Assembly (NCBI GenBank): GCA_004297735.1
Contig: SCTI01000002.1
Coordinates: forward strand, 417,578 to 481,577
DNA: 64,000 nucleotides
From: Patescibacteria group bacterium
Lineage (GTDB): Bacteria > Patescibacteriota > Saccharimonadia > UBA4664 > SCTI01
Direction: 5' to 3'
Part shown: one piece after another, positions 5,490 to 55,785 of the stretch
How positions within the stretch are numbered: the stretch's first letter is position 1
Layout: every line of letters begins with the position of its first letter
The notes under the pieces: generated by a model
Seen by the model: the letters and a program-made list of their open reading frames with translations, nothing else
Databases searched by the model: none
Told to the model about the DNA's origin: nothing
Program-made: the position numbers and the translations under genes

Positions 5490-8400
5490 TTGGAAGACAA
5501 AAGCTTGCAACAACCTGGACTGACAGGTAGTCAACCCCAGCGAACATCTGGCCCGCCTCAAACGGGTGGTTTAGTGTACCAAAGCGACATTACTCGACCG
5601 CAGCAATTATTGGGCCAACAGGTTGGGGGATTGGCGCAGTCGTTGGGCGCACCAGAACCGTCTAGCGTACCGGCGGAGTCAAGTGTTGCGCCTGAAACGA
5701 CGCCAGCAGTATCAGAGCCTGAGGTTGAAAGTAACCCAGAACCAACTCCCATTCCGGTTACCAACGATGTAACTCCACCTCCAGTGGCAGCTGATCCCGA
5801 ACCTACTCCAGCGGTTGCCGCGCCAGAACCGGTAGCTGGATCCTTAACCGGCGCCCTGGGTTCAGCCGAGGCAATTTCGCCACCGCTACCACCAGCCAAA
5901 TCCGAGGTTGCCAGCCCCTCGCCGACCGGTCCGTCGCGCCCCCGCCTGGGCCGTTTACGAATTGTACTTATCTTGCTGGTAGGACTGTTAATTATTGCCA
6001 TGCTAGCCCCGATTGCTTATCTGGGTTTTGCTAATTTACGCTCTAAGTCGGGTAGCGCTAATAACAAGGTTAATGGGGACTATACCGTTACCACCATACC
6101 GCTAAACGACTTGGTTAAAAGCGGGGACATTTCGTTTGATGCTTCGCGGCGAGTAAACATCAACGGCCAGCTTAAGATTAATAACTCGTTTGTGCTGACG
6201 CCTTCAGATACCCCTGACAATCCGCTGATTGGGCAGTTTTACCTTAACAACCAGAACACCACGCTGTACTACTACAACGGCAACTCATTTGTCGACTTAG
6301 TGACCGGCACACAGCTGGCGCAACTGACCACTACCGTAAATCAGACTCAGGCAATTGCCAATCAGGCTGCCTCCCAGACCATAACTTTGCCTCAAGACTT
6401 GGCAGTGACCGCCACACCAACCTTTGCCGGGTTGAATTTAAGTCAGCCGCTACCAATTGCAAGTGGCGGTACCGGAGCAACTACCGCAGCAGGTGCGCTT
6501 ACAAATCTTGGGGCGGCAGCTAGTGGCGCTAACAGCGACATCACCAGCTTGAACGCGCTGACTGCAATCAGCCCAACTACTGGAGTAACCTACCAGTTTG
6601 CGCCAGCAGTTGCCGGCACCTACGACCTGTGTTCGACCGCGGGTAACTGCGCTGGTGTGGGTGGTGGTGTGACAACCATCGGAGGCACTCCTGGCAGAAT
6701 TGCCAAGTTTAGCGCCGCCCAGGGCATTGTTGACTCGCTGTTGAGCGAAAGCGGGAGCACTGTCACCGCTAATGGAGATCTGGCTGTGACCGGCGGCGAT
6801 CTGGATTTGGGTAACGGAGTTAATCTTGATAGCGCGGTGGCCGATAGTCTGCATGTTGACGCCTCGCTGAACGTGGAAGGTACAATAACCAGCTTCTTGC
6901 AGATCTATTCATCTGAAAGTATTGTTGCGCGAAATGGGTCGAGTAATAAGGTGAGGATCGGTAATGTGGGTCCAAGTAATGAGGCGGGAATTACCTTTAG
7001 TAGCCTGGAGGACGTTAGTATTTACCGCAGTACGGCCGGTACGCTCAAGACCAACGGCAACTTCATTGTTCAGCCAGGTACGAACTCAACCACGGCTTTC
7101 CAGGTTCAAAATGCGGCTGGTACCAGTAACCTACTGGTGGCGGACACTACAAATACGCGCATTGGTATTGGGACGGCGGGGCCAAACTACACCCTAGATG
7201 TTGACGGAGACATTAATACCGGCAGTACCTACCGGATTAATGGAACCTCAATCTGTATATTGAGTGGCTGTGTGCCGTCTTCTGGGTCAAGTGCTTACAT
7301 TCAGAACGGCACGGTGCCGCAAGATGCCAACTACTACTTGCGCAGTGCCGCCGCCAACCAGATCACCGGTATACTGCAGGGCGCGGTTGGCCAGACGGCT
7401 GATCTGATTCAACTACGTAATCAAGCGGGCGGAATTGTTACTAGTGTGGGGGCTGACGGTAACGCTACCTTTACCACCACCAGCAACTCGGCGACCGCCT
7501 TCCAGATTCAGAATTCCAGCGGCCAAAATCTACTGGTGGCCGACACCAGCAACCAGCGATTGGCAATTGGCCCAGCCGCCTCACCGGCAAACAGCGTGTT
7601 GACTGTGGGCTCAAACACGACCGCGGCTAGCGGGGGAATTACTTTTGGGACCGATACTAATTTGTATCGTAGTGCCGCTAATCGGCTAAAGACCGACGAT
7701 AGCTTACAGGTTACAGGTGCTGGTGCATTTGGGAGTTCAGCAACCATACACGATATTGGTGCTATCCGGTCAACGATCAGCGCATCCGAAACCTATAGTG
7801 ATGCTTCCGCAGCAAGCTACATAACTGGCATTGATAATGAGTTGCATTTGAATTCTGACGCTAACGCCACGACCACAATCACGGGTATAGGTAACAGCGT
7901 TTTTCTGAATGGCTCCGGGTCTTACTCTAACTCTGCTGTATCGAGTCAAAATATTCTTTATAACTATAGTACTTCTGCCAGCGCATTAACTGGAGTTGAT
8001 AATAGAGTGGTAAACGAAGGGGACGTGGGCACGGCAATCGGGGGCTACAACGTGTACTCCACAAGTTATGGCACCACCAATCTTGCTCAAGGCTTGGTGT
8101 CGCAAATTTTAGCCACCAGTGAGGCTAATATAACTTCGGCTACGGGGGTATCGGCCGGTATTTCGAATCTTGGAACGGGTACCATAAACAACGGCTATGG
8201 CCTGCTTGTTACAACTGCGGTTAATTCGGGTGGTGGTGTCTTCCAAAACAACTACGGTATGTATATACAAGACCAGTCAGGGGTCGGTTCAACCAATAGC
8301 TACAACTTGTATTCGGCTGGGGTGAACGCAAAGAACTACATTGCTGGACTGCTCCAAGTTGGCACAACCAGCACGCCAACTCAGGCTGGAACAAACTTAC

Positions 8401-45763: not shown

Positions 45764-46126
45764 ATGTTAACATGGCCCCAGTGTAGGCACCTATTCAGCT
45801 GTACCGGAGGAGATATGTTTCGTGAAGAGCAGCCGCGCCAAGTGATGCTGGCGCTGGCTGCGCAGCACGACAAAGGCAGCCAGGGTTGGGTTAGTAGCTC
45901 GATTCTTAGCCAGGAGGTCGGGATCCCACCCGGGGAGCTGCAGATCATCCTGTGGGTGATGTGGCGCAAGGGCAAACTGGAAGCCCGAATGCACCCAGAT
46001 GGCTCCTGTAGCTGCACCGATCGTCAGTACCGAATTTCCTCGGCCGAAGTGGATCGAGTTATTCGGGGGATTGAGCTTTCTGAAGCGCATCGGGTTGCAA
46101 AACCAGATCTGAAAGCTGCCGCCTGA
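45764..46126 (+). CDS. Hypothetical protein, possibly winged-helix; first gene of the GC-rich island
   Basis: The likely start is the internal ATG (MFREEQPRQ...). GC3-biased. Convergent with the tail-fibre operon. Confidence 0.35.
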   Translation: MLTWPQCRHLFSCTGGDMFREEQPRQVMLALAAQHDKGSQGWVSSSILSQEVGIPPGELQIILWVMWRKGKLEARMHPDGSCSCTDRQYRISSAEVDRVIRGIELSEAHRVAKPDLKAAA

Positions 46127-46178
46127 CCACTGGGTCTACGAGAGAGGTTTACGACTTCACTCGTGGGCCTCTTTCTTT

Positions 46179-48086
46179 TTAATCGGCGGTACGGTTGGTG
46201 GGCTGAACTGTACCTAACGGTATGGTCGCTCCAGTGTCATCCCAGAGGTTGCTGGTCCAGGTGATTTGAGCTTGGGCGCTTTGTGAATACTGAAACACGC
46301 CATACTGCGATCCCAGCGACCAGATATTACGCATAAAGCGATTATTTTGAATGACGATATTGGTAAGTGTATTTGCTCCAACCGGGTGGGCATAGACGGT
46401 GTAGCTGCCCGCACCCTGAAGCAGGTTGTTTTCGACGGTTACGTTTGAGATCGCACCGTCATCGGCCTTAATGATTACGCACGAGGTGCCGTTGTTGGTG
46501 TGTGCACCGGTGTAGTACCAGCTGCGCGGGTCGATGTAATTGCCTCTTATGGTGACGTTATCTCCCATTACTAGCTGAATTCCGTCACAGTGGTTGGTGC
46601 TCACCCCATCACCCTTTAAGTAGGCGTAAAGATCGTGAATATAGCAATCTTCGATGGTGGCGTTACCGGCCGCTTTAAAAGCGTCACCAAATCCGTAAAT
46701 ATTCACTCGCCGGGCGGTAAAGTCGCTATAGCCAATGCCGAAATCAAGGGCGATACCGTTGCCGGTGGGTTGGCCATCGACGTCAAACCATTGGCTGTCG
46801 GGCGGCGCGACGGTGCAATCTTCAATAATGGGCGAATTGCCGTTGGAGCGAATGTAGTTTTCGACCCGACAGAACCGAATCATCACGTCGGTATGCTGTA
46901 CCTCGATGTAGCCCTTAACGTTGAGGTTTTCAATCACCTGCCCATTGTAGGAGGTGGTGAGGTTGCCGTTATAGGTGCTCAGGGTGGTTCCCGCTGGAAC
47001 ACCGGTGGTATAGGCGCTTGGGTACACGTAACCGCCCGGACTGGCGGAGCCCCAGCTTGAGCCATTATGAATTGAGGAGTTGGAGTTCTGCCAGCGGCTG
47101 CCATTCCAGACCGCTACGCCTTCAACGCTGGGTCGCGCATTAACGGTAATGGTGACGGTATCGGTGTGGGTGGCTGTTCCGGAATCGGTCACGGTAACCT
47201 GGAAAACATAGGTGCCGGTAGTGGTAATGTACACCTGGGCTTTTTGAATATTGGCATTTTTAATGGTTGGGCTAGAGGGTCCAGAAATTTGAGTCCATGC
47301 ATAGGTGAGGACGCGACTAGAATCGGCGGCTCCGCTTGTGTCTTCGGCGTCTAGCGAAGCGCTGGCATCAAGCACCACGGTGGTTTTGGAGTAAACGGTC
47401 TGGTCGGCGCCAGCGCTGGCCACCGGGTTGACATTAACAATGTCTGGGGCCGGTTTAAGTGCAACATGTACGGCCGAAGAGTTACCGGTTAGATTGCTGG
47501 TTAATGTGACTGTGCCGGTGGCTCCAGCGGTAGCGTAGAGTTTTTCAAAAACAGCATGGTTGATTTGAGTGTTTAAGCCATAGTCGGCGCGCTCGGTTTG
47601 ATCGCCTGGTGCGGTAAAATCACTAGCAACACCGCCGTTACCGCCATTGTTGTTTTGACTACCAATTGCTAGTACTACAGCGTTGTTGGTAAGTGTGGTG
47701 ATCGATGGGGCGGTTAGGCTGGCGGTCGTAGTCCCACCACTAGCCTCAACCGGAGTGGTCGTATCAACCCCAGAATAACGCAGCATAAAACCGGCAGCCG
47801 GTGTACTTCCTCCGCTAACTACAAAGTCGTATGAAGCCGGTTCGCTGCCGGTAGCAAGCTTGGTATAAACGATGGTTTGATCGCTAGAGTTTGAGGTACC
47901 AAATCCACCCTGGGCGCGCTGAGTGAATCCGCTAGGCACGCTTGAAATTGTTCTGGTGTTACGAATTGAGACAACGGCAACCAGAGTGTCGTTAGCAACG
48001 ACGCCACTGGGCTTGGTGATTGTGAGGGTGGTAACGAAAGCGCCGTTATTGGTTGACGTTCCAACGCTGCGGTATTGAATAGCCAT
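46179..48086 (-). CDS. Phage-type tailspike/receptor-binding protein: N-terminal adaptor, PKD/Ig-like domain, right-handed parallel beta-helix (pectin-lyase fold)
   Basis: YAWTQISGPSSPTIKNANIQ...YVFQVTVTDSGTATHTDTVTITVNA is the Ig-like domain. Repeated beta-helix rungs: IRFCRVENYI, IEDCTVAPPD, ATIEDCYIHDL, NVTIRGNYIDP, NVTVENNLL, NIVIQNNRF. Confidence 0.6.
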   Translation of the reverse strand: MAIQYRSVGTSTNNGAFVTTLTITKPSGVVANDTLVAVVSIRNTRTISSVPSGFTQRAQGGFGTSNSSDQTIVYTKLATGSEPASYDFVVSGGSTPAAGFMLRYSGVDTTTPVEASGGTTTASLTAPSITTLTNNAVVLAIGSQNNNGGNGGVASDFTAPGDQTERADYGLNTQINHAVFEKLYATAGATGTVTLTSNLTGNSSAVHVALKPAPDIVNVNPVASAGADQTVYSKTTVVLDASASLDAEDTSGAADSSRVLTYAWTQISGPSSPTIKNANIQKAQVYITTTGTYVFQVTVTDSGTATHTDTVTITVNARPSVEGVAVWNGSRWQNSNSSIHNGSSWGSASPGGYVYPSAYTTGVPAGTTLSTYNGNLTTSYNGQVIENLNVKGYIEVQHTDVMIRFCRVENYIRSNGNSPIIEDCTVAPPDSQWFDVDGQPTGNGIALDFGIGYSDFTARRVNIYGFGDAFKAAGNATIEDCYIHDLYAYLKGDGVSTNHCDGIQLVMGDNVTIRGNYIDPRSWYYTGAHTNNGTSCVIIKADDGAISNVTVENNLLQGAGSYTVYAHPVGANTLTNIVIQNNRFMRNIWSLGSQYGVFQYSQSAQAQITWTSNLWDDTGATIPLGTVQPTNRTAD

Positions 48087-48089
48087 ATG

Positions 48090-48593
48090 TTATGGCCCGG
48101 AGGTGTTTATCCAGATGTCTCCCGAGGCCAGCGTAACGCCCACCGATGCCGGATCAACCGTCCCGCGAAAGATGCGGCTGCTTGACGTTACAACATAACT
48201 ATTGGTACCGGAATCGTAGGTGTAGACCGCCGCCGCTGTGTCGGCTCGTGTCAGGCTGGTTTGGGTGCTGGAGTCCAGCTTGGTTCGAGCTATTGCCGCC
48301 CCACTGGCCACCTCGGTGTTGGTGATAGCTAGGCTGAGCTTGCTTTGGGCAATTGCTGCACCCGAAGCCACCTTGGCATTGGTAATTGCACCGTCCGCAA
48401 CGGTGGTGTCGTTGAGCTTGGTCTGAACAGCTGTTGCCAGCTTGGTTTCTGTAATAATGCCGTCTTGAATCTGACCGGCACCAACCGTATTTGATTTAAG
48501 CTCTCCAGTGTCGGATAGGCTTTGCGATAAGTACTCATTTAAAATATCACCCCATGAGCCGTTGTCTTGGCCGGGAATAGGTAGTCGAGCCAT
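48090..48593 (-). CDS. Phage tail-fibre N-terminal/repeat protein
   Basis: MARLPIPGQDNGSWGDILNEYL, then the tail-fibre repeat pattern I.DG.IT..KLA..AV...KL. Its stop lies 3 nt from the tailspike start. Confidence 0.6.
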   Translation of the reverse strand: MARLPIPGQDNGSWGDILNEYLSQSLSDTGELKSNTVGAGQIQDGIITETKLATAVQTKLNDTTVADGAITNAKVASGAAIAQSKLSLAITNTEVASGAAIARTKLDSSTQTSLTRADTAAAVYTYDSGTNSYVVTSSSRIFRGTVDPASVGVTLASGDIWINTSGP

Positions 48594-48693
48594 TTAATTG
48601 TGCCTCACGGTATAACTCATGTCGCTTATGATTATTGTGTATACGTTACCTTTGGTCAACAGCTAAATAACAGGTTTATCAATTTAACGAAAA

Positions 48694-48742
48694 ACCCGCC
48701 GGTGCGACCGGGGCCACACCTTGGTGCGGGTTTCCGTGTCGC
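48694..48742 (-). terminator. Rho-independent terminator (minus strand) between the small-gene pair and the tail-fibre operon
   Basis: On the minus strand, aaacccgc...gcgggtttt is followed by a T-run, with inner ccggtgcgaccgg and caccttggtg hairpins. Confidence 0.6.
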
Positions 48743-48756
48743 CCCAGCGGGGGGAT

Positions 48757-49113
48757 TTAGGACTGAAATACAGCGATCTCGCCGTAGAACATGTATTCAA
48801 TTTGGTAGACCTCGCGTAATTCCGCGTTCAGCCTCTCTCTTTCGGTGAGCGAGAATGGAATAGGTGGGAGCAACTTCTCCAGCTCCCCAAAAGCCCTAAG
48901 CAGCTTCTGGGTCGACTGCTTGCTCCCGTCGAGCGCGTAGTAGCTGCTATTCTGGGTTGGATCATGTCCAGTTTTGAGCGCCACAACTTGATTTTGGTGG
49001 GAGTGAAAACCCCCGCTGCTCAGCTGTTTTACGCCCGTTGGAATGGCTTGCCGAATTTCTTCGACAATATCCGATACCTCTAGATGCAGCATTGCTAATT
49101 CTCGGAAGCTCAT
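48757..49113 (-). CDS. Hypothetical protein
   Basis: 118 aa. Sits 7 nt downstream of the next gene on the same strand. Confidence 0.45.
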   Translation of the reverse strand: MSFRELAMLHLEVSDIVEEIRQAIPTGVKQLSSGGFHSHQNQVVALKTGHDPTQNSSYYALDGSKQSTQKLLRAFGELEKLLPPIPFSLTERERLNAELREVYQIEYMFYGEIAVFQS

Positions 49114-49120
49114 AGCTAGC

Positions 49121-49492
49121 TCAGTAGAAAGGGATGATCATGAGATCTAGCTTGATCTCTGGCTTAGATACGTCGGGCAGAAGCTTTTTGACCGCCGCCT
49201 CCAGCTCGTGCTTAAAGGAGTTTACGGCGCCGCTACAGAGCTTTGCCGGAACCCAAACTCGCACCTGAACGTCGAAGCGGGCGCTGTCACTGTTATTGGT
49301 GAAGTAGAACAGGTAGTTGACCGCTCCGGGCAGCTGAATTCCCAGCTCCTCAAGGTCAAACATATTTGCCGCTACGCTGATCACGACATCTTTCAGGTTG
49401 TCGGGTAGATCTTTCATGGCGTAGCCATACCGCTCATGGGCCGTATGTCGCATGAAAACCTCGATATTCCAGTCCGACATAACTATCTCCAA
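49121..49492 (-). CDS. Hypothetical protein
   Basis: 123 aa. Its 5' leader contains the perfect palindrome ggttgagcc-a-ggctcaacc. Confidence 0.45.
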   Translation of the reverse strand: MEIVMSDWNIEVFMRHTAHERYGYAMKDLPDNLKDVVISVAANMFDLEELGIQLPGAVNYLFYFTNNSDSARFDVQVRVWVPAKLCSGAVNSFKHELEAAVKKLLPDVSKPEIKLDLMIIPFY

Positions 49493-49635
49493 TTTCGGGG
49501 TTGAGCCAGGCTCAACCAGGTGCTTTCAAGAGAATATGCTATTTTGGCATTCACAAGCTATAAAATGCAAGCATAAAAACAAAGAACGCCCCGCGGTAAC
49601 GGCAGCCCAAAGGGCGTTCTTGTTACTGCGGGGCG

Positions 49636-50311
49636 CTAGACCAGGTGGGCGTAGCTCCCGACGACGTGAACTACTAGCTCCTCGAAATCGACTCCGAGGA
49701 TTGAGCAGACCGCCGCTGCCGTTGCCGGATCAAGGCGTTCACGATCCTTGATGAGTTCGGCGGCTAACCGACACTGTTCGGATTTGTTGGGGGTGTACCT
49801 TTCGACGTCATCTTTTACGACGCTAAGAAGTTGGCGCTCAAAGGCAGCATCCTCTTGTCTGCCGACCTCGCGGGCCGCCTCGAGATGAGCCTGATCCTCC
49901 TGGTTCTGACGGTTGAACTCGATCTGCTCGGCGCTTGCTTTGCGCTGCTGGCGTAGACCCTGATCCTCGTCGAGCGAGTAGAGCGTCATGCCGGCCGCTA
50001 GCTGAGTGACCACGCCCTCGGGAGTGCCTTCGGGGCACAGGACAAAGTGAAGGCGCGGACGTGGCAGGTGCTGTTGCTCGAAGAACAGCACCGAGTCAGC
50101 CAGCCGGATGGTTGTATTATCTGGCAGCTCGGTCGGCCAGACCGCGCAGAACACAGATCATCTGACTGGTTTTTTCCTCGCTGCGTAGCGGGGAGGCGAG
50201 CAGCACGGGTTTGACTTGGGGTAGCTCGCTCCGGCTTTCTGCAATGGCCTCGGCGCACTCAAGGAGCGAGGTATACAGTTCGCCATTGAGCCCATTGTGA
50301 GTGGAAGTCAT
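49636..50311 (-). pseudogene. Frameshifted paralog of the 50449..50886 gene (two overlapping ORFs, 50117..50311 and 49636..50154)
   Basis: MTSTHNG...LRSEEKTSQ in one frame continues as ...TELPDNTTIRLADSVLFFEQQHL in another. The intact paralog reads through contiguously (EEKSSQTLTVLPADPALFQWHTY). The frames change around the homopolymer at 50170-50175 (plus-strand TTTTTT). Confidence 0.5.
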
Positions 50312-50448
50312 GTGGCCTCTCGGTGGTTGGTATTTCAAGGAAAGCAATATTGTACAATAAATCATAAGATTATCAATAATAAGAGCTAATAAAAGCAAAA
50401 CGCCCGCCGACCACATGGCCGGTCTTACGGCGTTTGCGGTCAGCGGGC

Positions 50449-50886
50449 TTAGGCGGCCAGCGGTGTATCTCGAAGCCGAGTCCGGTTACGGCCCACCTGC
50501 CAGCTGGGCGCAGCGGGCGCCAGGATCAGGCCGTGAGGGCCTGGGTGAACCTGGTGAAGCCGAATTCCGGTCTGAAGCTCTCGGATGACCCTTGCAGCCG
50601 TCTCGTATGGGCAGGTCGCCAGGTAGAGGCAGTTGAGCCCGTAGGTGTGCCACTGAAACAGGGCCGGGTCGGCCGGGAGGACGGTCAGAGTCTGGCTCGA
50701 CTTTTCCTCCACCTGTTCGCGAAGGTAGGTGCTCATCAGTTCGAGCTTGTGAGGGAACCCGAATTCCCACTTGAGCGAACTCAGGTTGATCCCAGTGCCA
50801 CCGTTTCCTAGCCGCATAAACCCGGCGCACTGTTCGAGTAGATCCAAAGTGCGACGGTCTAGCAGGCTGGCTGCTGTGGAGGTCAT
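50449..50886 (-). CDS. Hypothetical protein, paralog family MTST...
   Basis: 145 aa. It has its own promoter (TTGATT-17-TAAAAT) and its own intrinsic terminator at about 50398-50440. Confidence 0.5.
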   Translation of the reverse strand: MTSTAASLLDRRTLDLLEQCAGFMRLGNGGTGINLSSLKWEFGFPHKLELMSTYLREQVEEKSSQTLTVLPADPALFQWHTYGLNCLYLATCPYETAARVIRELQTGIRLHQVHPGPHGLILAPAAPSWQVGRNRTRLRDTPLAA

Positions 50887-51009
50887 GTAACTCCTTTTTT
50901 CGGTTCAAAGAACAGATTATATTTTACAATAAAACAGATGAATAATCAATATAAAAAGTCAATAAAAACGAAAACCCCCAAGCGGGGGCTTTCGCCTCTA
51001 CCTGAGGGT

Positions 51010-51732
51010 CTAATCGATGAGCGATGGTGGGACGTGAGGCGCCAGGTTGACTGCCTGCGCCAGCATGTGCGGCGTGTCGAGCACCAGCGGTGCGTGATCC
51101 GGCGCGTGAATGGTGCCAGTGGCCAACAGGCGAACGACTCGGGTATTTCTGGGGTCGTGTCGCGGTGACTCCACAACCTCGACGATGTCGCCATCAAGTA
51201 GGTGGCGAGTTCCAAAAAGGGAGTGCCAGCCTCGCCGACTCTCTCCCATGGACTGCATTCCGTAGTAGGGGTGCGATTCGAAGAAGGTCTCCTGGAAGGC
51301 ATCGAACATACACACCGGTTCACCATCTTCGCTCAGCACTGGGTAGGCGAAGATGTCGCCTTGACGCCGAGTGTGTTCGTGACCGAACTCCTCTTCGCTC
51401 CACTTGATGAAGTCTGGCTTGAGCGCCTCGAACAAGGCCTGTTCGCCGTCTCGCTCAAGCACATCCTTGAGCTGCCCGCGGACGGACACCAAAAAAGGCT
51501 GTTCGTCGGTGCCACCGAAATAGAGAGCACCGGTTTGATAGTTCGGCCGCCGTCCTTCGAAGAACAGGAACTGCTCCCCGCCGAGAAGCGGATGGAACTC
51601 TGCGCCCTTGCCTGGGCGCAGGATGATGCTTGACTTAATCCGCTGAGCCCCTTCTGCATATTCGTTCGAGGGGTGAGTGCTCAACTGAGCCAGTCCCGCC
51701 GTCTGGGGGAGCTTCTTCATGTCAACGATCAT
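51010..51732 (-). CDS. Hypothetical protein (possible cupin/double-stranded beta-helix-like His motifs)
   Basis: 240 aa with FGHEHTRRQGD and TGTIHAPDHAP. An intrinsic terminator lies downstream at about 50967-50995 (cccccgcttggggg plus a T-run on the minus strand). Confidence 0.4.
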   Translation of the reverse strand: MIVDMKKLPQTAGLAQLSTHPSNEYAEGAQRIKSSIILRPGKGAEFHPLLGGEQFLFFEGRRPNYQTGALYFGGTDEQPFLVSVRGQLKDVLERDGEQALFEALKPDFIKWSEEEFGHEHTRRQGDIFAYPVLSEDGEPVCMFDAFQETFFESHPYYGMQSMGESRRGWHSLFGTRHLLDGDIVEVVESPRHDPRNTRVVRLLATGTIHAPDHAPLVLDTPHMLAQAVNLAPHVPPSLID

Positions 51733-51916
51733 TACCGTAACCTCTTTCGGTTTTTGTTCGGTTACTTGTATCTAGGATAGATGGGCCGACGGAAAAGTGC
51801 AAGGGGCAATATAGCCGCATTCTTTCAGTGAGCAAAGGTCTTAAGCTTTTATTTTTATGCCTAAAATGGTAAACATATAACGATTTAGCCATTGGACATT
51901 GACAAGGAGGTACGAG

Positions 51917-53248
51917 GTGTACGGAACGAAAGATCTTGCCCTGCAGCCTTCATTGGTGAATATTTGGGCGTGGGCAGTGGAGGGTGATCTGACTCACCGG
52001 CCTCATCCGTGTGTGGGTATTGACGATGCGCTGGTCGGCTGGGAGCCATGCGAAACAATTGGTGAGTTTATTTCGCTCCTGCAAGAGGAAATGAGACGAG
52101 CGGAGGACCTCACGAGCGAAATCCCGGACGTAGCTCGTAAAAGGGTAGAATTTTTTATCCGCCGAGTGGCGCGCAAGGTGCCCGAGAGCTTGGTGAGCGG
52201 ACTTTGGATAGTGAGAAACGTGTTGCGTTTCGAATCACCTGAGTTTTCGGAGCACTGGTTCGATATAGTAGGCGTGTTCATTAAAACTGTTCATACTCTA
52301 GCCGGGACTGAGCATCGTCTTCTGGTTGGGACAAAAGATCATAAGCCTGCTTGGTGCAAGCTTGATCCACCCGTAAGAACGATGGACGATTGGTGTGATC
52401 TAATCGACAGCGCATTCTTTGATGATGCACAGATCATGCCCTTTATCAGCGAGGATGATACCGATCTAATCCCTCACCCCCTAGAATGGGTGCCATCAAA
52501 AACGCTTACCAAGATGTGGAAATCCTTTCCGGATGTTGACCGTTCAGTGGTCGAAGGGGTTTTTGAGAGCGCTTACTACAACCAACACTTCACCCCTTAT
52601 CCTCACGGAATGGTGGTTAGAATTGAGGGACATACATGGATTAAGCAGCTTACCTTAAAGGTCAATAAGGGCGTTCAGGATGCTAACTACCTGGACTTTC
52701 TTGCCCGTATCCAAACCGTCGACGGCGAATTGACCTATATGGTGAATGGAGCTGATATTACGCATGAAATAAGCACGATGACGGTATCCTCCATTGGGAC
52801 TAACTATCTAGACCTTCTGATTGCGCAAATCTTCCACGATCTTGTAACCGTGAGGCGGCAACATAGTGTGGCCGGGGGAGTTCAGCTAGTTGGCGAGGGG
52901 AAGCCGGAGGAGCTGAACGGCGTTAGCTGGATTTACATACCTCGGACCCATCGCTTAAAAAATAATGCTGAGATCCGTCTTCCAAGTACTAACTCAGAGC
53001 CTCGGTCGCCACATAGGGTTCAGGGGCACCCTCGCAAAGGCAATATGTCAGAGGAGCAACGCTTTAGAATTGAGGAATTTGAGGCTTCTACCGGACTAGA
53101 GGTTCTTAGGCATCTTCCAGAGGGACACACCTATGTGCGCCCCCACGTATCACCGCTGTCGGACGTTGACGAGCTTAGCCTCCTGCCAAAGTTTGTGCGA
53201 ACTCGTCTTCAGAATGACTTGATCCGGATTATGCAGACACTGCCCTAG
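51917..53248 (+). CDS. Hypothetical 443-aa protein
   Basis: GTG start 5 nt after AAGGAGGT (the ORF track's TTG start at 51899 includes the SD itself). No recognisable catalytic motif. Confidence 0.45.
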   Translation: MYGTKDLALQPSLVNIWAWAVEGDLTHRPHPCVGIDDALVGWEPCETIGEFISLLQEEMRRAEDLTSEIPDVARKRVEFFIRRVARKVPESLVSGLWIVRNVLRFESPEFSEHWFDIVGVFIKTVHTLAGTEHRLLVGTKDHKPAWCKLDPPVRTMDDWCDLIDSAFFDDAQIMPFISEDDTDLIPHPLEWVPSKTLTKMWKSFPDVDRSVVEGVFESAYYNQHFTPYPHGMVVRIEGHTWIKQLTLKVNKGVQDANYLDFLARIQTVDGELTYMVNGADITHEISTMTVSSIGTNYLDLLIAQIFHDLVTVRRQHSVAGGVQLVGEGKPEELNGVSWIYIPRTHRLKNNAEIRLPSTNSEPRSPHRVQGHPRKGNMSEEQRFRIEEFEASTGLEVLRHLPEGHTYVRPHVSPLSDVDELSLLPKFVRTRLQNDLIRIMQTLP

Positions 53249-53461
53249 TCGAAACCTGGCACCTTGCGTATAGCAATAAGAGCTACAGTTTAGGCTGTAG
53301 TAATTCGCTATTCGCAGGGTGCCCCTAATTTAATGAAATTATAATTCCTTGGTGGACCGCCGGGTATCGAATTGGAATTTATTAATACAAGTTATGCCGG
53401 GGTTGCGTACCCGGCACCTTCTCTAGGAAGGACGGCTCGTTCAGGATGAACTTCCATCTGC

Positions 53462-54970
53462 TTATGGCCGTCGGATTCGTCCAACAAACCACGGAGGCGT
53501 CTCTTCGGCAGGCGGAACTCCGCGACGGGCTTTGCGTTTGAGACAGCGCTCAACCTCGGTGCGCAGCAGCGGGCCGTCGGGATGGGCGTCACTGATGACC
53601 TCGGGGTCACCCGACACCTTGACCCGAACTAGGAGCTGGATGTCATGGGGAAGTACCGGGAAGGTCGACTTAACGCCGCAATCCTCGCGGTTCTTCTTGT
53701 AGGTGACCAGCGGTACAGTTACCACGCCAACCGGCTTGAGCTCACCGTCCACCCGGTCAAAGAAGTACTCAACCGGGTAGCTGGTGGGCTTCTTGTTGCC
53801 GGCGATCTCCACCGTCATGGGTGCCAGATCGTACAGCCCCTGCTCCATCATCTCCTCGATGAGCTCGCGATCGTCGGGTAGCCGTAGATCGGTGGTCAGG
53901 AGCTTATCGGCAGCGACTCCTTCGAGCCGCTGACGGTAGTGCTCCCGAACCGTCTCTTCGGTGTAGCGATCGATATCTCCGCCCGACCGGATGCTGAACA
54001 GGTCGTAGGCGGCGATGAGCTCGTTGTTGAACCTGACGTCCGGGTGGGTGATCCGCCCAGACAACAGCTCCTCTAACAGCGACTCAGAGACGTCCTGGCT
54101 GGTGAGCCGTTCGATCTCCTTTTCGACCTCTCGAATCGCCTGCACTGCGCTGTCGCGTGAATGACCGTAGCGCCGCCCGCGGGAGTCGATGTGGTGCGGC
54201 ATAAAGTCGTCCCACACCACTAGCGAAAGGCTGTCGGAGTACTCCCACTGGAAGGCGTCCGCCACTGTTCGCTGGGCGTGACGGAGGAGTCGTTCGAGCG
54301 TGTCGGTTGGTATGCCGACCGCTTCGAGCTCCGCCAGCTTGACCTGCAGCTCTTTGAGCCGCGTGTCCCAGCTGCGCCGGTCATGGTTGCGCTTCTCCTC
54401 AGTCCTATAGCGGCGGTAGTTGTCCCGCATGCTCTCGAGCGAGTAGCCACGTCCGACGATGTCGCCTTTGGCGTCAATCACCTCAAAGCCAGTGATTTCG
54501 GCGTTGTGCGGCGTTGACGGCCAAGTCGTGAGGTTGAACACGTCGTTGATCGACACCTGAATGGTGGCGGTGACGTACCCCGGGTAGTAGCTGATGGTGT
54601 AGACCGCGTACAGCCAGACACCTTCGTGCTCAAAGCGGTCGGGTTCTGGCGTGGCCGGGACCGGAGGGGTCTCATAGGTCCAGTCGGCCGGCTGGTCAAA
54701 CGACGGCTCAACCGGCGCATAGCGCTGATCGGCCAGCCAGCGGTCAAGATCACGACGTAGACCCTCATCCTTGAGGACGTCGTAGGCCTCGGTCGCCTCG
54801 TTAAACAGCGAACCAGCCTCGGCGAGCTCTTCGGGTGTCGCATCCGGTCCGAGTCGGTCCGGATGTAGCTCCTTGGCGCGATCGCGGTAGGCCCGCTTGA
54901 TGTCGCTGGTGGTGGCCTCGCGGGGCACACCAAGAACAAGGTAGTGATCCTTGAGAATCAACTTTGGCAT
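53462..54970 (-). CDS. J-domain (DnaJ-like) protein with a ~430-aa uncharacterised C-terminal region
   Basis: DHYLVLGVPREATTSDIKRAYRDRAKELHPDR is a canonical J-domain with the HPD tripeptide. No Gly/Phe-rich region and no Zn-finger repeats follow it. Confidence 0.6.
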   Translation of the reverse strand: MPKLILKDHYLVLGVPREATTSDIKRAYRDRAKELHPDRLGPDATPEELAEAGSLFNEATEAYDVLKDEGLRRDLDRWLADQRYAPVEPSFDQPADWTYETPPVPATPEPDRFEHEGVWLYAVYTISYYPGYVTATIQVSINDVFNLTTWPSTPHNAEITGFEVIDAKGDIVGRGYSLESMRDNYRRYRTEEKRNHDRRSWDTRLKELQVKLAELEAVGIPTDTLERLLRHAQRTVADAFQWEYSDSLSLVVWDDFMPHHIDSRGRRYGHSRDSAVQAIREVEKEIERLTSQDVSESLLEELLSGRITHPDVRFNNELIAAYDLFSIRSGGDIDRYTEETVREHYRQRLEGVAADKLLTTDLRLPDDRELIEEMMEQGLYDLAPMTVEIAGNKKPTSYPVEYFFDRVDGELKPVGVVTVPLVTYKKNREDCGVKSTFPVLPHDIQLLVRVKVSGDPEVISDAHPDGPLLRTEVERCLKRKARRGVPPAEETPPWFVGRIRRP

Positions 54971-55275
54971 GGTGTGCCTTTCTGGTTGTAGAGGTGCTTG
55001 TGGCTATGCCACCATCGTCGCAGCAAGCGATTAAACATTATAACATAAAATTCTAAATAAGTCCAATGGTGAACTACCGTGTATCGAATTGGAACCAAAT
55101 CAAGAGGGAGCTGGTGTCGTGGAGTAAATCTTTATCTGGAGAACAACTATTAAAGACTACGACCGGGTAATGGAATCAGCATGATCTTGCTGATATTATT
55201 GGCTTATGGTGTTCAAAGGATTCTAATTTACTCCATACGTCGAAACAAAGCGTCCAGCGAGGCGCAAATTTAACT

Positions 55276-55785
55276 ATGGAGAAAATTATGAATAAGAATG
55301 AATTAGACCCCAAAGTAAGCAGCACGTTAAGCTCAGCCAATATGGCATATGAGATTCTAGACTGCAGCGATGAGCTTGCCGATACAGCAGCTTTCTGCGA
55401 ACACTACAAAGTCTCGTTAGATCAGGCCGCGAATACATTACTGGTGGCATCAAGGAAAATTGAACCAACTCGGTATGCGGTTTGCGTAGTTCTTGCCACT
55501 ACGAGGTTGGATGTTAATAAAAAGGTTTCAGAGCTACTCGGTGCAAAGAAACTATCTTTCGCAGATGGCGAGACAACTCAGCGACTGACCGGGATGATGA
55601 TCGGTGGCGTTACAGCGGTTGGTATCAAAGATCTGCCTATCTATGTTGATACTGAGGTGATGCAGCGCGATAAGGTGGTGATGGGTGGTGGCAACCGAGT
55701 CACTAAAATCCTCATTAGTCCTCAAGAACTACTTAAGCTCAAAGAGGTTCAGGTTGTGCAGGGTCTAGCGAAAACAAGAGCGTAG
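55276..55785 (+). CDS. YbaK/ProX-type aminoacyl-tRNA deacylase domain protein
   Basis: 169 aa, ...KKLSFADGETTQRLTGMMIGGVTAVG...GGGNRV. Host-like AT-richer composition. Confidence 0.5.
   Translation: MEKIMNKNELDPKVSSTLSSANMAYEILDCSDELADTAAFCEHYKVSLDQAANTLLVASRKIEPTRYAVCVVLATTRLDVNKKVSELLGAKKLSFADGETTQRLTGMMIGGVTAVGIKDLPIYVDTEVMQRDKVVMGGGNRVTKILISPQELLKLKEVQVVQGLAKTRA

Follow-up and report, generated by a model that had tools for sequence, protein, structure and literature searches.

Two neighbouring small genes on a bacterial chromosome, with similar upstream regions and a broken reading frame in one of them, raise the question of whether they are copies of a single promoter-gene unit and of what broke the frame. 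They lie in a 64-kb stretch of contig SCTI01000002.1, hereafter the window, a chromosome piece from a metagenome-assembled genome (MAG) of the Saccharimonadia (Patescibacteria). An initial annotation described them as a duplicated promoter-gene unit, with one copy frameshifted at an A6/T6 homopolymer directly after the peptide EEKTSQ. In outline the observation holds, and it is of an ordinary kind: an old pair of paralogs, a promoter module that has been reused, and a small, non-conserved insertion that inactivates one copy. We call the intact gene P1 and the broken one P2. The features on which the argument turns, in window coordinates, are these:

50904–50979, minus strand: predicted type A promoter module of P1, with −35 TTGATT at 50949–50944, a 17-nt spacer and −10 TAAAAT at 50926–50921; a CTTTGAA element lies downstream and an additional TTGACT (50960–50955) upstream
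50449–50886, minus strand: P1, the short form, 145 amino acids (aa), intact (TAK89263.1, EPO04_04190)
about 50393–50448, minus strand: predicted terminator after P1, fold −36 kcal/mol, z-score (z) −5.2, then a U-run; matches those after L2_145 and L1_183
50334–50405, minus strand: predicted type A promoter module of P2, with −35 TTGATA at 50376–50371, a 16-nt spacer and −10 TACAAT at 50354–50349; a CCTTGAAA element lies downstream
49636–50311, minus strand: P2 as a whole, the long form, in two frames, restorable to 223–224 aa
50117–50311, minus strand: P2a, the N-terminal fragment in the original frame, 64 aa, ending at TAA 50119–50117
50170–50175, minus strand: A6 run in P2 (T6 on the plus strand), not the frameshift site
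50128–50136, minus strand: frame-disrupting lesion of P2, an extra base in GAC[C]GAG (CC at 50132–50131) or a CCGA-CCGA duplication (50136–50129)
49636–50157, minus strand: P2b, the +1-frame remainder, open from 50157 and annotated from GTG 50154 as a 172-aa protein (TAK89262.1, EPO04_04185)
about 49572–49637, minus strand: predicted terminator after P2, fold −31.6 kcal/mol, z −4.2, then a U-run; matches those after L1_221 and L3_231

An intact orthologue, the 221-aa protein P0002, locates the break. Residues 1–55 of P0002 match frame 0 of P2 (E = 6e-9); residues 60–221 match the +1 frame instead (E = 3e-54, 54% identity). Frame-0 homology continues past the A6 run for seven more codons, MICVLR(G), to ...MICVLRGLAD; frame 0 then stops at its TAA, after an overlap of 38 nt with the +1 frame. 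Read in that +1 frame, the run is followed by an early stop (AAA AAA CCA GTC AGA TGA, the TGA at 50160–50158, four codons on), which means that no shift made at the homopolymer could bring the protein back. Aligned at the nucleotide level with three orthologues, P2 has a single extra base, at GAC[C]GAG (50134–50128), about 38 nt downstream of the run, although the extra bases can also be read as a tandem duplication, CCGA-CCGA, at 50136–50129. Either repair works in silico: removing one C yields a 224-aa ORF (open reading frame; ...VLRGLADELPDNTTIRLADSVLF...), and removing one CCGA yields 223 aa. The initial annotation was thus right that this copy is frame-broken, but the break lies within 50128–50136 and not at the homopolymer after EEKTSQ.

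Translation of P2 would end at the frame-0 TAA and yield a 64-aa product. No Shine-Dalgarno (SD) sequence precedes GTG 50154, so the 172-codon remainder is probably poorly translated or untranslated. In an AlphaFold2 (AF2) model of P0002, the lesion site falls between the last helix (44–60) and the first beta strand (65–70) of the predicted N-terminal domain.

Among the relatives examined, the split occurs only in this genome, and an index of exact proteins contains no intact allele nearly identical to P2. Long forms are single ORFs in P0002, P0005, P0006, P0007 and P0008 (207–231 aa) and in the family member at locus L007 (217 aa); the orthologues checked at the DNA level (217–231 aa, on four contigs) are all uninterrupted, and nearly all long members recovered by an exhaustive profile search match in one uninterrupted stretch. 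The frameshift position, whose conservation among paralogs had been proposed as a check, is therefore not conserved. We considered the C-terminal-only family hits (P0046, P0061, P0066 and others) as recurrent splits and rejected them, because their N-terminal end points differ. One of them, P0046, is the sole further member of 172 aa; it is a variant with an internal deletion and with the N-terminal helix motif retained, and the remaining C-terminal-only hits are apparent truncations.

We consider it probable that a genuine mutation has inactivated P2 and that it is fixed, or at any rate predominant, in the population sampled. It would be recent and strain-specific, making P2 a pseudogene or a null allele. 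Recent pseudogenisation was one of three origins offered for the break, and it fits best, given the intact orthologues, the single lesion and the otherwise clean 172-codon frame. The 64-aa and 172-aa ORFs are called likewise in the Logan assembly of SRR8426595, whose contig matches the window without a difference over 6519 nt (100% identity). Agreement with this independent assembly argues against an assembler artefact. EPO04_04185 should accordingly be labelled not a 172-aa protein but the 3' portion of a 224-aa gene with a frameshift.

Are P1 and P2 really paralogs, as had been proposed? Compared directly, they say little. P1 shares with the N-terminal fragment of P2 only an MTST..LLECA match (E = 2.2), has no pairwise match to the C-terminal fragment, and gives a weak signal against joined, restored P2 (E = 0.15). 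Intermediates close the gap. An intact 221-aa protein from the syntenic locus L002, P0005, matches P1 at E = 4.5e-16 and P2b at E = 2.4e-22, and the P2 orthologue P0002 matches the P1 orthologue P0004 at E = 2e-8. These matches bridge both genes: P1 is the short form and P2 the long form of a single family, and the two are paralogs stemming from an old duplication. Besides P0004 (145 aa, 56% identity), P1 has an orthologue of 143 aa at 7453–7884 of locus L003.

Two sequence features had been put forward as common to both proteins. The first, an MTST N-terminus, survives as a family feature, MT(S/T), in the family alignment. The second, an EEK(T/S)SQ core, is no shared core: the family alignment sets its two occurrences out of register. 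There YLREQVEEKSSQ of P1 stands opposite VLRGLADELPDN of P2, YLREQVEEKSSQTLTV of P1 is paired with VLRGLADELPDNT-TI of P2, and EEKTSQ of P2 with PHKLELM of P1.

The family is uncharacterised and lineage-restricted. A word-indexed search found only 7 family proteins among 5.8 billion, and the exhaustive profile search returned 134 clusters (50% identity) at E <= 1e-3, with 86 at E <= 1e-10. Lengths are bimodal, about 100–159 aa and 200–239 aa, with some 49 short and 79 long members. The family alignment (A3) is too diverse for a genome scan; a narrower one (A5) found one GTDB locus, L007, in a genome named Candidatus Saccharimonadia. Neither Pfam, PHROG, NCBIfam nor PADLOC holds a significant match to the family, and its profile matches no PDB sequence. 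What this work defines is a Saccharimonadia-restricted protein family with short and long forms.

The upstream regions of the two genes are homologous, much as the initial annotation had estimated (roughly 70–75% identity). A local alignment of 50979–50904 to 50405–50334 has 58 matches in 77 columns, or 75.3% identity (81.7% without gap columns). Its score of 50 compares with 16.5 ± 2.5 for dinucleotide-preserving shuffles, none of which (0/1000) reaches it. The aligned span stretches from the tail of the terminator, across the −35 and −10 elements, to a C/T-rich TTGAA element, and a repeat finder picked up the same similarity (families D1 and D3). On the minus strand both modules read as promoters of the form TTGAT(A/T)-16/17-TA(C/A)AAT, again as first described. 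Scored by match to the sigma-70 hexamers TTGACA and TATAAT with a spacer of 16–18 nt, they are TTGATT-17-TAAAAT (9/12, 50949–50921) for P1 and TTGATA-16-TACAAT (10/12, 50376–50349) for P2. The −35 and −10 hexamers are kept across six to seven modules in four genomes while the spacers vary. Consensus and conservation together suggest that these type A modules are sigma-70-type promoters. A 10-bp palindrome, ATTGTACAAT, over the −10 of P2 (50349–50358) was considered as an operator and rejected, since it is not kept in other modules: other copies read ATTGTAAAAT or ATTGTAGAAT where P2 has the perfect palindrome, which is probably incidental.

Did promoter and gene duplicate together? The distribution of the module in sister genomes says otherwise. 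Within the window the type A module (TTGAT[A/T], about 17 nt, TTATTGTA[A/C]AATAT, about 8 nt, C/T-rich TTGAA) has just two copies, and it recurs in the sister loci L001–L003. In L001 it precedes a 183-aa membrane protein, and a weaker copy precedes the long form; in L002 it precedes a 124-aa gene and the short form; in L003 it precedes the short form. The 183-aa and 124-aa genes show no similarity to the P1/P2 family. The long form in L002 and L003 has a type B module instead (TTGACT, 17 nt, TATGAT or TATGGC, then ATCCTTTTCCATAGGCGACTCCT). Moreover, the closest relative of the P2 module is the one before the unrelated 183-aa gene of L001 (score 57, versus 47 to the P1 module).

That the long form can carry another promoter type, and that type A stands before unrelated genes, indicates that promoters and genes have different histories. 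The same follows from divergence: the P1 and P2 proteins are about 25–27% identical and their promoter modules about 75–82%, and modules so much more alike than the proteins imply that the promoter similarity does not date from the gene duplication. The annotated unit therefore stands in its parts, homologous modules and paralogous genes, and falls as a single joint duplication. The likeness of the modules would reflect either reuse or conversion of the promoter or strong constraint on a regulatory sequence common to them. We infer that type A is a reusable promoter whose spread or conversion was independent of the old duplication of the genes.

The P1 upstream region has a further feature, two tandem −35-like hexamers at 50955–50960 and 50944–50949 (minus strand). 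The TTGACT and its flanks (TTTTATTGACTTTT[T/A]ATA) match the type B module before the L003 long form (score 39), so the promoter region of P1 looks like a composite of both module types.

A third module had been read as a weaker relative of these two, at 49493–49570. It is a different module. When 49481–49640 is aligned with the P1 and P2 upstream regions, 4/1000 and 29/1000 shuffles reach the score, and little is common beyond the terminator tail and a T-run. We regard this module, hereafter unit 3, as a putative promoter/leader type of its own, separately conserved and not closely related to type A. The terminator-promoter-leader stretch of unit 3 is about 83% identical by column in three genomes (window 49481–49640; L001 11353–11500; L003 8697–8856). 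A leader hairpin, GGTTGAG-N5-CTCAACC, sits just before the SD sequence; its stem is kept, with one U.G pair in L001, and its loop varies. The leader has no Rfam match, and BLAST finds no similarity between the 119-aa protein downstream of it in the window and the 128-aa and 121-aa products that follow unit 3 in the L001 and L003 genomes. Unit 3 may be a regulatory leader that is conserved while its cargo gene has been exchanged or evolves very fast.

In this variable island, then, promoter and leader modules are better conserved than the genes they are predicted to drive. To our knowledge almost no promoters have been mapped in bacteria of the candidate phyla radiation (CPR), and conserved modules of this kind could aid the recognition of promoters and transcription units there. 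A DNA-pattern scan of metagenomes for the type A promoter gave five hits, all of them chance matches, on contigs of 23–35% G+C.

Structure prediction offers limited help with function. The AF2 model of P0002 is confident, with a mean predicted local distance difference test score (pLDDT) of 87.4. It comprises helices at residues 4–60, four strands at 65–121, a long helix at 126–170 and three short C-terminal helices. On this model, long forms would add the long helix and a small C-terminal helical bundle to an N-terminal alpha/beta domain. A Foldseek search with the model gave no significant match in PDB or BFVD. The Pfam model HTH_26, of a helix-turn-helix (HTH), reaches E = 0.07 and 13.8 bits against a cut-off of 22 bits, in 2/54 members. 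A DNA-binding role of the long form is a weak lead.

Several points weigh against our account. The two assemblies probably come from the same reads, which leaves room for a systematic sequencing error. A single lesion followed by 172 fully open codons is equally compatible with a mutation of very recent date, with a population variant in the minority or majority, and with an error. The modules are predicted promoters, read from consensus and conservation. Finally, the C-terminal bundle of the long form carries a weak hint of an XRE-like fold, below every significance threshold.

Among the alternatives to a real mutation, a sequencing or consensus error survives best. The gene would then be intact, and the extra base at 50128–50136 a read or polishing artefact. 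This is what one might suspect of a MAG with one small indel, a clean downstream frame and intact orthologues throughout. Nevertheless, the k-mer-based Logan assembly, made independently, is identical over 6.5 kb, and a CC dinucleotide or two-copy CCGA, not being a long homopolymer, is an atypical context for indel errors. We judge such an error unlikely, while granting it appreciable weight.

It is quite improbable that the split is tolerated and the 64-aa and 172-aa pieces function as separate genes. The break would fall inside the modelled N-terminal domain, between helix 44–60 and strand 65–70, and GTG 50154 has no SD sequence before it. NCBI does annotate the 172-aa ORF as a protein, and N-terminally shorter family members exist, P0046 (172 aa) for example; P0046, however, carries an internal deletion and offers no parallel to the split in P2.

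Programmed +1 ribosomal frameshifting, or another form of recoding that yields the full-length protein, is very improbable. Known +1 sites of the prfB type combine a stop-codon or hungry-codon slippery site with an upstream SD-like stimulator. The two frames of P2 do overlap by 38 nt, and a +1 shift anywhere in 50157–50120 would restore the full-length protein, but the overlap (CGC GGT CTG GCC GAC CGA GCT GCC AGA TAA) contains no slippery motif of this kind with its stimulator, and no prfB-like CUU UGA with an SD sequence. A shift at the stop codon does not fit either, since similarity in the +1 frame (ELPDN versus QLPSD) is already present ahead of the frame-0 stop. The split is also absent from all orthologues examined and from the wider family. 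Programmed slippage, another of the origins first offered, is set aside on the same grounds: the break occurs in none of the examined orthologues and coincides with no known +1 motif.

Slippage at the A6/T6 run (50170–50175), as phase variation or as the homopolymer indel error that completed the initial list, has a negligible probability: the run does lie inside P2, 35–45 nt upstream of the lesion, but the sequence itself refutes it, because a one-base change there leads through CCA GTC AGA to TGA after four codons and truncates the protein without restoring a single ORF, frame-0 homology to P0002 runs on through MICVLR(G), and the nucleotide alignment puts the extra base at 50128–50134.

A recent inactivating mutation in one of two old paralogs thus remains our reading of P2, and the surroundings show the kind of locus in which it arose. 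The window and three other metagenomic contigs (the syntenic loci L001–L003) have a common gene order: dnaJ, a block of variable small genes, a DUF5907-like gene, a PKD/beta-helix gene, and then RRM, DUF5684, response-regulator, histidine-kinase and methyltransferase genes. Flank proteins are 69–91% identical between the window genome and the syntenic genomes. The P1/P2 region is part of a variable chromosomal island, with dnaJ on one side and the RRM/DUF5684/response-regulator/histidine-kinase/methyltransferase cluster on the other. The island is built of monocistronic units, each running from terminator to promoter to small gene to terminator. Its other features, all on the minus strand, are:

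51010–51732, minus strand: 240-aa gene
50961–51002, minus strand: predicted terminator after the 240-aa gene, found by scan, directly upstream of the P1 promoter; fold −28.5 kcal/mol, z −4.6, then a U-run
49481–49571, minus strand: putative unit 3 promoter/leader module, TTGCAT (49570–49565), 18 nt, CAAAAT (49546–49541), with the hairpin GGTTGAG-N5-CTCAACC
49121–49480, minus strand: 119-aa gene
48757–49113, minus strand: 118-aa gene
about 48695–48751, minus strand: predicted terminator downstream of the 118-aa gene
48090–48593, minus strand: DUF5907-like gene
46179–48086, minus strand: 635-aa PKD/beta-helix gene

Four intergenic hairpins have folds of −28.5 to −40.3 kcal/mol (z −3.8 to −5.2 versus shuffled sequence), and each is followed by a U-run. 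With a G+C-rich hairpin and a U-run at a gene 3' end, they have the make-up of intrinsic (Rho-independent) terminators and are predicted to act as such. An Rfam scan of 46000–55500 (E <= 1) gave as its sole match a sub-threshold ctRNA elsewhere in the region. A phage origin was considered and dropped: megablast of 49000–52000 against a phage collection found no match, and the window holds eight tRNA genes and housekeeping synteny. Scans of IMG/VR with P1 and P2b found no relatives.

Between dnaJ and the P1/P2 pair lie the 240-aa ORF (51010–51732, minus strand) and a 449-aa ORF (51899–53248, plus strand, TTG start). Neither has a match in Pfam, PHROGs, NCBIfam or PADLOC, and both are absent at the syntenic position in L001, L002 and L003; they are genome-specific insertions into the island.

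On the other side of the pair, the 167-aa protein encoded at 48090–48593 is related to DUF5907 and to the PHROG 'minor tail protein' phrog_2012 (E = 1e-13). It has internal repeats of the AxGAIxxxKL type, and its L001 orthologue, at 198 aa and 61% identity, is 31 residues longer. The gene lies directly upstream of the PKD/beta-helix gene, a tail-fibre-like arrangement on a bacterial chromosome. The 635-aa product of the latter (46179–48086 in the window, 13735–15642 in L001) combines a K319L-like PKD domain with a beta-helix and is probably a surface protein. It is 91% identical between the window and L001, and the DnaJ, histidine kinase and methyltransferase flanks are 69–78% identical, a difference that suggests recent exchange or unusually strong constraint.

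A bolder proposal would join all of this. The locus would be a cassette-like hypervariable Saccharimonadia island in which terminator, promoter and leader modules (types A and B and the leader of unit 3) are kept at about 75–85% identity while the small ORFs between them are swapped, lost or inactivated from one sister genome to another; the MT(T/S) family would regulate the shared promoters, the short form would modulate the long one, and the frameshift would be an off-switch in this strain. The regulatory part leans on the confident predicted fold of the long form, with no counterpart in PDB or BFVD, and on its XRE-like C-terminus. We consider the proposal as a whole distinctly unlikely.

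How does the locus compare with known systems? XRE/Cro-C1 HTH regulators are a poor likeness. HTH_26 stays below its cut-off, the domain in the P2 family is C-terminal, and the putative recognition helix, in sequences read by eye, lacks basic or polar DNA-contact residues. Contingency loci that switch by homopolymers or simple sequence repeats (SSRs) come closer in setting, with an indel in a gene of a variable island near surface-protein genes, but the lesion of P2 sits at a CC or a two-copy tetranucleotide and not in a long repeat tract. With prfB-type frameshifting P2 has in common that joining its frames needs a +1 shift; unlike prfB, its split is not conserved, and the shift site has neither an in-frame stop nor an SD-like stimulator.

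The promoter modules recall putative mobile promoters, for which the criterion is at least 80% identity over 50–100 nt (Matus-Garcia et al. 2012, PMC3488235). A 70–90-nt module recurs before P1, P2, the 183-aa membrane protein, the 124-aa protein and the short form, and in L001 and L002 a homologous promoter stands before non-homologous genes. At 75.3% identity with gaps and 81.7% without, the window pair is borderline for the criterion; its copies front paralogs, and no transposable-element features were seen.

The frameshifted pseudogene is the remaining comparison. P2 differs from it in having no second lesion and in a C-terminal piece that NCBI annotates as an ordinary gene. The likeness lies in the lesion itself: P2 carries one small insertion, its two parts align in two frames to one intact protein, and removal of the indel restores the ORF.

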